From an uncultured delta proteobacterium (GTDB lineage: Bacteria > Myxococcota_A > Polyangia > Fen-1088): a stretch of 64,000 bases of DNA. The position numbers and the translations under genes are program-made. The notes under the pieces are model-generated. The model saw only the letters and a list, made by a program, of their open reading frames with translations, did not search any database and had not been told where the DNA came from. Positions 45,130 through 50,905 of this stretch are shown in pieces. The DNA lies in NCBI GenBank assembly GCA_963737265.1, contig CAVTRY010000011.1, forward strand, positions 1,120,001 to 1,184,000, in the 5' to 3' direction. Position 1 is the first letter of the stretch. Every line of letters starts with the position of its first letter.

Positions 45130-45460
45130 TTCGGCCACCCCGAAAGAATGGATCTGGCAGTGGGTCTTTCCCGCAACCCGCACGTACACCGATCTCGCAA
45201 GTCGGGAAGTTCGTCGCCACCACCTGCACGAATCCGTCATCCAGCGCGCCGTTCGCCGCGCCGCCGTGGCCGCGCGCATTCCCAAGCTGGTCAGCCCCCA
45301 CACCTAGTGTCATTCCTTCGCCACCCACCTGCTGGAAGACGGCTACGACATCCGCACCATTCAGGAGTTGCTAGGCCACAAAGACGTGGCCACGACCATG
45401 GTCTACACCCACGTCCTGAACCGCGGCGCTGGCGGAGTCCGAAGCCCTCTCGACCACTGA
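45130..45460 (+). pseudogene. intI: Integron integrase remnant (C-terminal about 110 aa, internal stop)
   Basis: IntI-specific EWIWQWVFPA...RRHHLHES; [26 protein letters not shown]...YTHVLNRG; TAG at 45305-45307. Confidence 0.92.
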
Positions 45461-46339: not shown

Positions 46340-46504
46340 GCGCGCCCGTCGAACAAGCCGTTGCAGCGCTCGTAGGCAGTGCAAGTAAAAAGAACAGGGA
46401 GTGATTCGGGTCGTCTGGGCACACGAGATCCGTTCCGCGGTCAGGAAGATGCGGTGGAAAGGATCAGGTGCGCGAAGAAGATTTGAGCGGGCGAGAGATC
46501 GGGA

Positions 46505-46860
46505 GGCAATCGGCCTGGTAATCGAAACGCTCCAGTAGGATGTCCGCGAGGGCCGGCATCGAGTCAGCTTGCAACGGAGATTGGGTCAGGTCGATGGATC
46601 CTCAGGGTGCCTCGAAACAGACAGCGCTCTTGCACAAGGCAGAGATGAGCTTCAACAGGAGGTCACCCGTCGGATATCTCACACGTTCAAGGAATTGGTT
46701 TGCTTTGGTTGTTTGCTCCTTTTCTGCAAGTGGGTCTGACCAAGATGGACAGGGTCAGATCAAAAATCCTCAGGGTGCCTCAAGACAGACGGCGCTCTTG
46801 CACATGGCAGAGATACGCTGCAACAGAAGGTCACCCTTCGGAAATCTAGAATGTTCAACA
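46505..46860 (-). ncRNA. Predicted bridge/seek RNA: two target-binding loops and one donor-binding loop
   Basis: 93-bp direct repeats 46598-46690 and 46766-46858 fold as stem/internal loop/stem with attC-matching guides; 46508-46595 carries matches to the element ends. Confidence 0.75.
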
Positions 46861-46884
46861 TGGGTCGTCCCCATACCAGCATGG

Positions 46885-48174
46885 CTACACCGTCACCTGC
46901 AGACGGCGGGTGTCGAAGAGCTTGCTGCTATCAAAGGTGCCACCGCGACCGACGTGGTACAGCCCCTTGGCCAGCTTGCGCATCAGCGCGACGGCAGCTC
47001 GCGAGGCTCGGCCGCCGTCTCGTTGCTTTTTGCGCTGGTACCAGGCGTTGGCGATGGGATCATCCTGAATCCAGCGGAAGATGGCGAGCCAGAGTAGCTG
47101 GCGTACGCGGGATGGACCACGCTTGGTGATCTTGATCTGACCGTGCATGGTACCGCTGCTTTTCTCCTTGAGGTTGAGGCCCATGGCTTTGAGGAAAGCG
47201 CGTGTACACGAGTACGATCGTGCATCACCGACCTCGGCGAAGATGGCGGCAGCGGTGGTGCGGCCGACGACGGGGGCAAGCGCGGCGGCGGGCGTGGTGG
47301 CGGCGAGTTTTTCGACTTTCGTCTTGGCCGTGCTGAAGGCCCGGTGGGCGTCATAGGCCTCTTCGGCGATTACCATCAAAGCGTCGCGTTCAAGCCCGAC
47401 CATCGGGACGCCGACGGAGGTGCTGGCCGAGGCGACAACGGCAGCAACGTCGTCGTCGGCAATCAGCCTGTGACTGATACCACGAAGGAGCTTCGTCGCC
47501 TTGTCCGGGGCAGCGGCGACATCGGCAGGACCGCCGATACGCGCGACCAGCGCCATAAGCGATGCCGAGGTCAAATCAAGCAGGCTGGGCAACTCGGGCC
47601 AGTGGCGAGCGAGCCAGCTTTCCAAGCGATGCACGAGCTGCAGGTAGCGCTCCTGGTGCAGATCCATGATGGCCAGTGCTGCCTTGAGCTGCCGACGTTC
47701 TGGGACTTCGTCAGGCAGGCGGGTGGAAAGGCCGTCGGCGTGCAGCCTGGCGATGATGGCGGCAGCCTTGGCGTCGTGAAGACTGGGCACGCCGTCGAAG
47801 ATTTCCTTCGCATCGTGGGTGCGCTTGCCGCTGACCATGAAGATCGGAAAGCGGTCCTGTTCGAGCTGGTGGCGAAGCACATCGCCGTAGGTTCCGGAAG
47901 GCTCCATGACGGCTTCGACGATGATGCCGGCGGTGCGGTAGCCGCGCAGGATGGAGAGCACCGTGGGGTTCTGCTCTGGGGCCTTCCAAGAGATGGTGTG
48001 CAGCACACGCCCGTCGGCGCCAGCGAACGCTGCAACCATGTCGACCTTGGCGACGTCGATGGCGAGGACCAGCTTGCCGCCCAGGTCGGCGGGCGAGATG
48101 CTTTGTGGTTGAAAATCATTGACGGGCATTCTGCGATAGATACGCTTCTTCATGGGGATGACATCCTTCGTCAT
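46885..48174 (-). CDS. IS110-family transposase/recombinase
   Basis: LAIDVAK, VMEPSGTY, HDAKAA, KEKSSG (catalytic Ser), ITKRGPSRVR; start 48174 or 48153. Confidence 0.92.
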   Translation of the reverse strand: MTKDVIPMKKRIYRRMPVNDFQPQSISPADLGGKLVLAIDVAKVDMVAAFAGADGRVLHTISWKAPEQNPTVLSILRGYRTAGIIVEAVMEPSGTYGDVLRHQLEQDRFPIFMVSGKRTHDAKEIFDGVPSLHDAKAAAIIARLHADGLSTRLPDEVPERRQLKAALAIMDLHQERYLQLVHRLESWLARHWPELPSLLDLTSASLMALVARIGGPADVAAAPDKATKLLRGISHRLIADDDVAAVVASASTSVGVPMVGLERDALMVIAEEAYDAHRAFSTAKTKVEKLAATTPAAALAPVVGRTTAAAIFAEVGDARSYSCTRAFLKAMGLNLKEKSSGTMHGQIKITKRGPSRVRQLLWLAIFRWIQDDPIANAWYQRKKQRDGGRASRAAVALMRKLAKGLYHVGRGGTFDSSKLFDTRRLQVTV

Positions 48175-48308
48175 GGTTTCGGACTTCGGCACTTTTGGGA
48201 CGTCCCCGTTTCCATTTGCAACTACCTTTAGCTGACTGACGCAGTCGCCGCAGGGGAATTGGGGTAACATCAAAGAACCGCTCGTGCGGCGCCCGCGCCG
48301 CTGAACGG

Positions 48309-50194
48309 GTGCGCCCAGCATGGGCGTCGTCTTGGGGGTGCAAGTCCCCCCGAAAGGAGACCATCCCAAACGAAGCGAACTGCAACTGCGAAAGGGCGAC
48401 CAATCGTGGGGAGGAAGCAGGGAGCGAAACCGCGGGCTGATGAACAAAAACCGGATAAGAGGCGGCGCCGAGCGGGGCGAGTGGGCCCGTTGCCACAAAG
48501 CCTCGATGGTCAAAGCTCAGGCTACGTAGATCCGGCGGTCGTGCGGGGAAGGACGACGTACTTACCTGGGGAGATCTCGCCTTGTGCCTGAAAGGGCGAC
48601 GGCGCGGACGCGACGGGGCGAGAAGTCAGCAGAGGTCGTAGTAGCGAAGTCGAAGCCGGGGCGGCGATATCACCGACGCCGGAAGTCTTTGGCGATGCGA
48701 AGGACTGAACGAGAAGGAGAGCGAAACGAACATGCGTCTCGGAAGCAAACGGCCTCAGATGACCAGGCAACTGGAGCTAACGTTTTCAAATAGGGGTGAA
48801 ACCCCGACGGGAAAACGAAGCGAGGAAGCGCCGACGGCGACGTGTGAAAACGAGCGCTCGGGAGCGAGCGGCCTGATGGAGAGGGTGTGCGAACGCCCGA
48901 ACCTTTTGGCCGCGCTGAAGCGAGTGAGAAGGAACAAGGGCAGTCCCGGCATCGACGGGATGACGGTGGATGAATTGCCGATACACCTGCGCGAATACTG
49001 GCCACGGCTGCGCGAGGAACTGCTCGCGGGGACGTACCAGCCCGCGCTTGTGAAGGAGCAACTCATACCGAAGGCCAGCGGAGGAATGCGCAAGCTTGGC
49101 ATTCCGACGGTGGTCGACCGATTCATCCAGCAGGCTGTATTGCAGGTTCTGCAACCGATGTTCGACCCGGACTTCTCAAAGCACAGCCACGGTTTCCGGC
49201 CTGGGCACCGTGCGCACGACGCCATCGTCGAGGCGCAGGGGTATATCCAGGGCGGACGCAAGTGGGTGGTAGACGTGGACTTGGAGCAATTCTTTGACCG
49301 CGTGAACCACGACGTGCTGATGGGAAGACTGGCGAAACGCATCGGCGACCGTCGTTTGCTGGGGCTCATCCGGCGTTACCTCGGGGCCGGCATTATGGCT
49401 GGCGGGGTGGCGACGGAGCGGTACGAGGGAACGCCACAAGGCGGCCCCTTGTCACCGCTGCTAGCCAACGTGCTGCTCGACGAAGTGGACAAGGAGCTGG
49501 AGAAACGCGGGCACGCATTCTGCCGGTACGCTGATGACTGCAACGTATACCTTCGGTCGCGGCGTGCGGGCGAGCGTGTGATGGGGCTGCTACGGCGGCT
49601 CTACGCGGGACTGCGACTTCAAGTCAATGAAACGAAAAGCGCGGTGGGCTTGGCGTGGAACCGGAAAATCCTGGGTTACACATTCTGGGTAAACCGGGAA
49701 GGAACGGTGAAGCGCGCGGTGGCAGACAAAGCCCTTGCCACGATGAAGGACAAAGTCCGGAACATCACGAGGCGGACGGGCGGGCAAAGCATTGGCCAGG
49801 TCTGCAAACGGCTGGGGGAATATCTGCGTGGTTGGAAGGAATACTTCCGGCTCGCGGACACGCCTCGGGTCTTTGGCAACTTGGACAAATGGATTCGCCG
49901 TCGCCTACGGGCTCTCCACTTGAAACACTGGGGACAACAATCGACCGTCTATCGGGAACTGCGGGCTCGGGGGATGTCCCATGACGCAGCAAGCGTAGTG
50001 GCCGTGAACTGTCGCCGCTGGTGGAAAAACTCGGCTAGTATGATGAACGTGGCATTTCCCATTCGCTACTTTGACCAGTTGGGGGTACCCCGGCTGGCCA
50101 CGTAACCTCAACTTCCCGAACCGCCCGGTGCGGACCCGCACGCCGGGTGGTGTGGCAGGGGTCCTTGACGATCTGTCGAGGCCCCTATGCCGAT
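48309..50194 (+). mobile_element. Group IIC intron inserted in attC1
   Basis: 5' GTGCGCCCAGCATGGGCG; short domain V with CGC triad at about 50118-50155; 3' end CTATGCCGAT; flanks rejoin the attC. Confidence 0.93.
48732..50105 (+). CDS. ltrA: Group II intron reverse transcriptase/maturase, no endonuclease domain
   Basis: SPGIDG, RKLGIPTVVDR, GTPQGGPLSPLL, RYADD. Confidence 0.95.
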   Translation: MRLGSKRPQMTRQLELTFSNRGETPTGKRSEEAPTATCENERSGASGLMERVCERPNLLAALKRVRRNKGSPGIDGMTVDELPIHLREYWPRLREELLAGTYQPALVKEQLIPKASGGMRKLGIPTVVDRFIQQAVLQVLQPMFDPDFSKHSHGFRPGHRAHDAIVEAQGYIQGGRKWVVDVDLEQFFDRVNHDVLMGRLAKRIGDRRLLGLIRRYLGAGIMAGGVATERYEGTPQGGPLSPLLANVLLDEVDKELEKRGHAFCRYADDCNVYLRSRRAGERVMGLLRRLYAGLRLQVNETKSAVGLAWNRKILGYTFWVNREGTVKRAVADKALATMKDKVRNITRRTGGQSIGQVCKRLGEYLRGWKEYFRLADTPRVFGNLDKWIRRRLRALHLKHWGQQSTVYRELRARGMSHDAASVVAVNCRRWWKNSASMMNVAFPIRYFDQLGVPRLAT

Positions 50195-50801: not shown

Positions 50802-50905
50802 GTCGAACAAGCCGTTGCAGCTGACAATCCCGCCGCAGGGACATCGTGTAGAATAGAAGCGCCGACTCGGCGGCGGGCTTGCAGCTGAACGGCAAGGCGT
50901 TCGGC
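50802..50905 (+). other. attC2, intact (104 bp)
   Basis: R'' GTCGAAC, L'' TTGCAGCT, inner stem CCCGCCGC/GCGGCGGG, L' AGCTGAA, R' GTTCGGC. Confidence 0.9.

Follow-up and report, generated by a model that had tools for sequence, protein, structure and literature searches.

An IS110-family insertion sequence in an attC-like site

We analysed a stretch of 64,000 nucleotides (nt) from an uncultured delta proteobacterium (GenBank assembly GCA_963737265.1, contig CAVTRY010000011.1, positions 1,120,001 to 1,184,000), hereafter referred to as the window, in which an insertion sequence occupies an integron attC-like site. The element consists of a transposase gene on the minus strand, preceded by 84 nt of left end before the start codon and followed by a 3' non-coding region of 516 nt from the stop codon to the right end (Table 1). 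This region harbours two units of the target-binding type, B and A, which carry different guide letters, and a third loop, D, which is a candidate donor-binding loop. Judged from its sequence, the element is an attC-targeting IS110-family insertion sequence with IS1111-type layout, in keeping with a preliminary description of this DNA, which had assigned it to the IS1111 type.

The transposase scores 54.3 bits against PF02371 (cut-off 21.3) and 27.0 bits against PF01548, slightly below the cut-off of 29, and the NCBIfam IS110 model NF033542 spans it end to end (30–405) with 112 bits, below its cut-off of 140. Both Pfam domains are present in the precomputed hits of the relatives' transposases, and we regard the protein as a divergent member of the IS110 family. 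Metagenomic relatives number in the hundreds, many of them likewise of 422 amino acids (aa); a plasmid search with the transposase returned only weak matches to the C-terminal domain (best below 60% identity, at most 28% of the protein).

Five copies with identical ends are present in the genome, four of them full-length (98–100% identity) and one interrupted. All five are placed after AACAAGCC GTTGCAG of attC-like sites, at a fixed place and in a fixed orientation, and 27 attC-like sites starting with the AACAAGCC motif occur in this genome. The unoccupied attC-like site GTTGCAGCTGACA reported earlier at 50814-50826 reads as it had been given. The position of the ends is certain to within the 2-nt core common to the flanks; alternative boundaries, that is a target longer by two bases (GTTGCAGCG-CT-GACG), were dropped because paralogous empty sites have the shorter spacing. 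The left-end tip is near-invariant among relatives, with L098 and L100 reading CG in place of AG (L numbers denote individual loci), and the right ends collected have an invariant TACGAG except for one (L113: TAAGAG). The best local match for a sub-terminal inverted repeat is AGGTAGTTGCAAAT versus AGGCAG-TGCAAGT, beginning at distances of 10 nt (left) and 5 nt (right) from the tips; its score was equalled in 296 of 2000 shuffles, and the general repeat search did not list the pair. A scan for consensus promoters and terminators gave nothing useful within the element.

Table 1. Features of the insertion sequence and its attC-like sites (positions of the window; guides and tips of minus-strand features are given in transposase orientation)
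Feature	Position	Strand	Remarks
Whole insertion sequence	46369..48237	-	1869 bp; ends shared with other copies in the same genome
Transposase gene	46885..48153	-	422 aa plus stop; DEDD/IS110-type RNA-guided recombinase
Left-end tip	48230..48237	-	AGTCAGCT; first two bases AG = core
Target-binding-loop unit B	46761..46850	-	adjoins transposase gene; covariance-model match 109.4 bits
Guides of unit B	46816-46824; 46786-46793	-	5' GUUGCAGCG; 3' GCCGUCUG
Spacer between B and A	46683..46760	-	hairpin and conserved A-rich stretch
Target-binding-loop unit A	46593..46682	-	nearer right end; covariance-model match 106.2 bits
Guides of unit A	46648-46656; 46618-46625	-	5' GUUGAAGCU; 3' GCUGUCUG
Loop D, candidate donor-binding loop	46510..46594	-	between A and right end
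Right-end tip	46369..46385	-	...CTTGCACTGCCTACGAG
attC half, right-end side	46352..46368	+	AACAAGCC GTTGCAGCG
attC half, left-end side	48238..48241	+	GACG
Unoccupied attC-like site	50806..50826	+	AACAAGCC GTTGCAG CT GACA

Two target-type loops in the 3' non-coding region

Units A and B overlap two 93-nt direct repeats (46598-46690 and 46766-46858), which lie 168 nt apart and are identical at 79 of 93 positions (85%); the repeat search agrees in this respect with the preliminary description. From relatives of the element we collected 84 distinct units, 78 of which were aligned and used to build a covariance model. When run against the window, this model, of the kind that had been suggested as a check, returned exactly two matches, B and A, both on the minus strand. 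The fold proposed earlier for the transposase strand (outer stem, internal loop and inner stem) is recovered, with 98.6% of positions paired over the 78 units: a short outer helix and the stem GGGUG(A)CCUU/GAGGCACCC are followed by a large internal loop and the inner stem CUCUGC/GC(A)AGAG. In 72 of the 78 units the outer stem contains a U-G pair, which supports the transposase strand because it would be C-A on the opposite one. For B, folding of the single sequence yields the expected structure as the minimum-free-energy fold (z = -2.49).

The guide segments of B equal both flanks of the element (46360-46368 and 48238-48241). That is, the reverse complement of 46816-46824 is GTTGCAGCG, which is identical to the left flank at 46360-46368, and the other flank, at 48238-48241, reads GACG. 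The corresponding segment of A (46648-46656) has GTTGAAGCT as its reverse complement. All these letters had been given correctly before. In both units the order of the guides is alike: GUUGCAGCG in B, which is complementary to the top strand on the right-hand side of the crossover, precedes CGUC, which has the sense of the top strand on the left-hand side.

Rfam holds no family for these loops; its matches were the neighbouring group II intron and two hits at chance level. Contigs from RNA libraries (four runs, mapped at 85% likeness), all of which derive from relatives, bridge A, the spacer and B; they show only that bridging pieces exist, and parts without coverage carry no meaning.

Relatives carry one, two or three target-type units

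According to the covariance model, relatives possess one, two or three target units. A single unit is found in all distant relatives (38–63% protein identity) and in a few closer ones, two units in about 30 elements at 80% protein identity or above, and three in L019. Extending the genome search from family to order level covered the same 89 genomes and added no insertion. In single-loop elements, the unit sits at A's distance from the right end (about -298) and its flanks resemble those of A, which argues that B was added to an original loop A.

A quick tree of transposases (52 rows, comprising elements with near-full transposase hits and uncut loop regions) places all 31 multi-loop rows on one side of a branch with a Shimodaira–Hasegawa-like approximate likelihood ratio test (SH-aLRT) value of 94. 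The two-loop arrangement thus has a single origin in the tree, consistent with one duplication at the base of the clade and no loss among the tree rows; as the single-loop elements L020, L021, L121 and L122/L141 were left out of the tree, losses inside the clade are possible. The earlier proposal that the target loop had been duplicated and re-lettered has therefore held up: the duplication is kept in all 31 multi-loop rows, and relatives with one and with three loops exist.

Both units are strongly conserved. Among 27 two-loop elements, mean pairwise identity amounts to 0.95–0.99 for the stems of both units and 0.80–0.89 for the guide segments, as compared to 0.64 for the spacer (66 reference positions). 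In unit A, the stems are 95–98% conserved and the guide positions reach 0.89 and 0.81. The difference between stems and spacer argues that A and B are both kept by selection. The guides of B and A differ from each other in every two-loop element scored except L110.

The guide of B follows the insertion flanks

To compare guides with insertion flanks, we scored eight of the nine positions of the 5' guide against the flank and obtained p-values by permutation. Position 7 was excluded, since the guide frequently carries U or A there regardless of the opposing base. The comparison covered 44 of 47 distinct insertions; L016, L017 and L066 were dropped because duplicated pieces of ends or flanks shift their flanks. 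Classes were assigned by pattern, whereby the three-loop element L019 was scored as two-loop and the two-loop elements L069 and L083 as single-loop. In single-loop insertions (n = 12), the guide matches its flank at 7.08 of 8 positions on average as compared to 6.44 after permutation (p = 0.0008), and in two-loop insertions (n = 32) unit B matches at 7.22 of 8 versus 6.75 (p about 1e-4). Thus, the guide of B covaries with the flank. Exact matches between guide and flank are present in L099 (GTTGCACCC), in L098 and L100 (GTTGCAGCG) and in the first loop of the three-loop element L019 (ATTGCAGCG).

The choice among attC-like sites within a genome follows B as well. In genome G036, where the B guide is GTTGAAUCG, the element is present in three of eight GTTGAA-type sites but in none of 29 GTTGCAG-type sites (Fisher's exact test, about 0.007). 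In the genome under study, where B reads GTTGCAGCG, five of 21 GTTGCAG sites are occupied versus none of six GTTGAAG sites, which alone is not significant. According to the preliminary description, flanks should fall into two classes, GTTGCAGCG-GACG and GTTGAAGCT-GACA. These classes are not found: four of the five copies in this genome have GTTGCAGCG, with GACG wherever the left side is readable, one is mixed (GTTGCAGCT-GACA), and none has GTTGAAGCT. A few insertions favour A: L065 fits A at 8 of 8 positions and B at 7 of 8, L070 fits A at 7 and B at 5, and in L004, a copy in this genome, the left flank TGTC fits the 3' guide CUGUC of A and the right flank fits B at position 5. Together, these comparisons point to B as the targeting loop and leave the guide function of A unproven.

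As an additional observation, guide position 7, counted in the segment 46816-46824 and compared with the flanks of relatives, is frequently U or A irrespective of the base in the flank (G or C), which suggests that this position is not read or is flipped out.

A third loop complementary to the left tip

Between A and the right end lies loop D, with the outer stem UCGACCUG/CAGGCCGA and the inner stem GAUGCCG/CGG(A)CAUC, the latter showing the same bulged-A design as the target loops. The loop is kept in 39 distinct sequences, in which 93.1% of positions are paired and three pairs are compensatory, and none of 500 shuffles was as good. A possible internal stem CUCC/GGAG within the loop was considered and set aside: it is 92% paired with no compensatory change, and its GGAG overlaps the proposed donor guide.

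On its 5' side, loop D carries AGCUGACU (46562-46569), which is complementary to the left tip AGTCAGCT; with one mismatch allowed, the left tip is the only top-strand match to AGTCAGCT in the element. On its 3' side it reads GAGCG (46528-46532), which corresponds to the final three bases of the right end followed by the core. In relatives with one target loop, the 5' guide, the 3' guide, the GAG+NN of loop D and both junctions all share their core letters, and this holds for a group with AG (L020, L087, L093, L097 and L121) as well as for one with CG (L098 and L100). Loop D is therefore likely the donor loop. Because a separate loop carries the complement of the left tip, A is not simply a donor loop, and the view that both repeats are target-binding loops, as put forward before, stands. 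A pairing of CCUAC in loop D with CCTAC of the right end was likewise considered and dropped, as variants of the right end are not followed.

Core bases and junctions

The last guide letter (G in B, U in A) lies opposite the first base of the 2-nt crossover core. It had initially been read as a mark of two attC variants; its position opposite the core speaks against this, and the base that it faces probably stems from the donor. Empty sites in this genome mostly read GTTGCAG-CT-GAC, with one reading -CG-. The right-end junction has CG in four of the five copies, and the left-end junction has AG (CT on the plus strand) in all copies with a readable left end, while the donor guide of loop D reads GAG-CG. 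In the simplest reading, the left junction would keep the core of the target and the right junction that of the donor. Such a mixed core is the outcome that would be expected if only the top strands were exchanged, a mode proposed for another IS110 element (preprint 10.1101/2025.10.25.684509). The mixed core, AG on the left and CG on the right, thus bears on the question of top-strand-only versus double-strand exchange.

Several further features of the junctions were noted. Some attC-like sites contain only the last 55–75 nt of the right end, joined directly to sequence of the left-flank type (...CCGACCATC); they are located at G000:C11:1196710-1196781 (L010/L006), at G000:C7:295572-296249 (L011, L013) and at L025, and look like remnants or mini-derivatives of one-sided recombination. 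Five empty attC-like sites read GTTG(C/A)AG-ACT-G.. instead of GTTGCAG-CT-G.. (G000:C11:1185071, 1191073 and 1195958; C13:370598 and 460769), all of them outside the window. The extra A corresponds to the base before the core at the left tip of the element, and these sites could be excision scars or natural variants. Short duplications are present at the right junctions of the relatives L016/L060, L066 and L017/L051 (CGAG in two copies, CGTACGAG in two copies, or 12 nt of the left flank repeated beyond the right end) and suggest slipped or half-site recombination.

Possible roles of the second target loop

We propose, with about as much trust as doubt, a seek/bridge RNA system with a duplicated target loop, in which B works, A is an intact, alternative and less used guide, and D serves the donor. 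The 3' non-coding region would be transcribed on the transposase strand and would encode three loops bound by the protein. The last of these, D, would read the element's own ends as donor loop, and B and A, both situated before D, would represent tandem paralogues of the target-binding loop. In a target loop, the 5' side (GUUGxAxCN) would pair with the top strand on the right-hand side of the crossover, and the 3' side (..GUC and the two core bases) with the bottom strand on the left-hand side. B would have arisen by one duplication of A at the base of the clade and would have been retained since then; it would be the working target loop in two-loop elements because its guide matches the sites that are actually used. 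A, which selection has preserved with guide letters of its own, would most likely be loaded on the transposase as the alternative target guide.

A number of observations weigh against this proposal. In the 32 two-loop insertions, unit A matches the flank at 6.125 of 8 positions versus 6.148 after permutation (p = 0.69), so that the covariation of guides with flanks in homologues, which the preliminary description required, holds for B but not for A. B fits better in 24 of these insertions and A in three, with five ties, and one of the three is the three-loop element L019, whose best loop the scoring pattern missed. All permutation p-values overstate the evidence, as the insertions are related by descent and host. 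In G036, none of the 37 attC-like sites matches the A guide GTTGTGGCT (GTTGTGG), and in the genome under study the two GTTGAAGCTGTCG sites, which match the 5' guide of A at nine of nine positions, are both empty. As to structure, single-sequence folding of A gives the expected fold only in the centroid (z = -0.59) and does not recover loop D (z = +1.12), and pair covariation in the target loops is thin (one compensatory pair in 78 units) because the stems hardly vary. L111, L115, L122 and L141 have the usual left tip yet a loop D without AGCUGACU, and CCUAC in loop D does not track right-end variants such as CCGTACGAG. Finally, the bridging RNA-library contigs differ at 25–27 positions in about 200 nt and may represent carried-over DNA. 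The preliminary description had also claimed that the two guides form an array covering the sequence diversity of attC sites. Since the predicted flank classes are absent, A shows no covariation, the A guide of G036 has no site and the G/U difference falls on the core, this claim has to stay conditional: the array could cover such diversity.

A more far-reaching version of the proposal envisages a small natural guide array, whose units would be cut out as separate seekRNAs, loaded on the transposase, gained by duplication from one to two and then three, and re-programmed, thereby addressing several attC classes or an old and a new site at once. We regard this version as possible, while leaning against it. 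If true, it would bring to bridge and seek RNAs a way of multiplexing that has until now been known from CRISPR arrays.

Conversely, B alone may select targets, and A may be a scaffold which together with D forms the ancestral long RNA for loading, processing or synapsis, with its guide left unread. The lack of covariation of the A guide with flanks and the missing site in G036 agree with this, as do the position of A directly upstream of D in every element and stems that are conserved as much as those of B. Moreover, long seekRNAs of 145–170 nt whose role is unknown have been described beyond the short form (PMC11187229). However, the guide positions of A (0.89 and 0.81) are more conserved than the spacer (0.64), which an unread guide need not be; the insertions L065 and L070 fit A better, and the linker that joins the loops has proved dispensable in engineered split guides (PMC13604230). 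On balance, we consider a pure scaffold role doubtful, if still worth pursuing. Cooperation of the two target loops appears improbable. In that case one loop would hold the resident junction or attC site and the other a second site, allowing direct transfer free of circles, or recombination between attC sites with loss or inversion of cassettes. The guides of B and A indeed differ in all elements but L110, the junctions of L016, L017 and L066 carry duplicated pieces of ends or flanks, and an RNA of CazIS110-1 comprising only the target loop supports transfer from the old left junction to a new target; yet the published pathway requires the full bridge RNA for its second step (10.1101/2025.10.25.684509), and two target loops filling both halves of a tetramer are unsupported in this lineage. 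Rearranged cassettes or joints between two attC sites were not seen, although no search aimed at them was made.

Two further explanations are contradicted by the data. Since bridge RNAs are canonically two-looped (PMC11208160) and the A guide hardly varies (GTTGAAGCT) among many elements, which would be expected of a donor guide, B might be the target loop and A the donor loop of a canonical bridge RNA. We searched the element accordingly and rejected this assignment: the 5'-guide target AGCTTCAAC and the 3'-guide sequence GCTGTCTG of A are absent from the tips of the element even with one mismatch allowed, and the only other match is a one-mismatch site on the bottom strand across the left tip. 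Furthermore, the loop at A's position in single-loop relatives matches flanks and not ends, and it is loop D that carries the complement of the left tip, which makes a canonical pair very hard to sustain. Still less credible is a neutral tandem duplication of recent date, or an artefact of assembly, in the manner of the local expansions reported beside IS110 transposase genes. The units share no more than 85% identity, the architecture recurs in five copies here and in about 30 diverged relatives whose assemblies are independent, it has a single origin in the tree, and the stems are far more conserved than the spacer.

Comparison with known systems

For IS1111 elements, including the attC-targeting ISKpn4, ISPst6 and ISPa25, the available description reports seekRNAs with single short loops and a longer precursor, in which the match to the top strand is located 5' of the match to the bottom strand; the short form is sufficient for transposition of ISEc11 (Siddiquee et al. 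2024, PMC11187229). With these three elements, the present one shares the DEDD transposase followed by a 3' non-coding region, the stem/internal-loop unit with the same order of strand matches, and the insertion at a single end of integron attC sites and with a single orientation (PMC11187229). It differs in having two or three target-loop units, as compared to one seekRNA of 82–86 nt plus a form of about 150 nt, and a transposase of 422 aa instead of about 340 aa (PMC11187229). IS1111 transposases in general are given as 330–350 aa in length with a GL-P----S(t)G motif (PMC11187229); here, the motif reads GLNLKEKSSG, with SG present and L in place of P. The target of ISKpn4 is listed as CGGCTTGAACGAATTGTTAG (PMC13604230, Table 1) and differs from GTTG(C/A)AG-CT-GAC. 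The ISKpn4/ISPst6 group occurs on plasmids, and no plasmid relative of the present element exceeds 28% protein coverage; the distinction from that group is drawn by description.

The bridge RNA of IS621 comprises one target and one donor loop, each of which reads both strands around a 2-nt core whose letters are common to guides, target and donor (Durrant et al. 2024, PMC11208160; Hiraizumi et al. 2024 and 2026). The present element likewise has a target and a donor loop type and common core letters. In IS621 the RNA lies 5' of the gene and the left guide is on the 5' side, whereas here the RNA region lies 3' of the gene, the guides come in the opposite order and there are two copies of the target loop (PMC11208160). 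Thus, the element departs from the canonical set of one target and one donor loop (PMC11208160), as it has two target-type units and one donor-type loop. Head-to-tail non-coding repeats beside IS110 transposase genes have been reported in a preprint, where near-identical units (at least 95% alike) were read as local, ongoing half-site expansion and, in the text available, guide content is not discussed (10.64898/2026.08.14.744561). Unlike those, the units described here are 85% alike, old, clade-wide, apparently under selection, and differ mainly in their guide letters. For CazIS110-1, an RNA comprising the target loop alone acts beside the full RNA and supports one step of a direct-transfer pathway, but there it derives by shortening from the only bridge RNA gene and has an unchanged guide (preprint 10.1101/2025.10.25.684509); in the present case, a second copy with its own guide exists. 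A 2026 review speaks of one protein and a single programmable RNA (PMC13604230), and a 2026 preprint surveying bridge RNA variants contains, as far as its accessible text goes, two-loop structures only (10.64898/2026.10.21.760802). Full-text literature searches, which covered articles without their supplements, returned no instance of a natural RNA having several target loops.

A target loop that was duplicated once, kept in every sampled descendant and changed in its guide letters indicates that the number of guides per element varies in nature. If the second loop is read, it would set a precedent in nature for bridge editing with several targets or two sites and would explain how the element deals with varied attC sequences; if it goes unread, the family would offer a clean case from which to learn which parts of a loop bind protein and not guide. 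In either case, many natural guide-target pairs become available, together with a tolerated mismatch position (guide position 7).

Neighbouring features

A fragment of an integron integrase gene (45137-45457, plus strand; model positions 208-314; one in-frame stop) lies about 900 nt before the element, and a full-length integron integrase gene (L143, G000:C17:93644-94585; 456 bits, cut-off 265) is located on another contig, about 430 nt before the copy L001. On the other side, about 150 nt from the insertion sequence and apparently in the same attC site, a group II intron extends from 48390 to 50105 on the plus strand. Its domains D1-D4 are detected by Rfam at 48390-48561 (100.6 bits) and 48597-48705, and an open reading frame within it (48732-50105) has reverse transcriptase and maturase domains. 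Insertion sequence and intron thus represent two different attC-seeking mobile elements in adjacent positions.

An 18-nt inverted repeat (83% complementary) connects the junction of attC flank and right end (46360-46377) with a segment inside the transposase gene (48019-48036); the latter arm contains CGCTGCAAC on the bottom strand. The repeat is probably due to chance. The scan with the attC pattern also brought up an unrelated multi-copy sequence beginning with GGTTTTCGAACCAGGCCATGCAAATGCAGAGG, which occurs at about 29 places in G000 and at none in the window, and which is probably the end of another mobile element.

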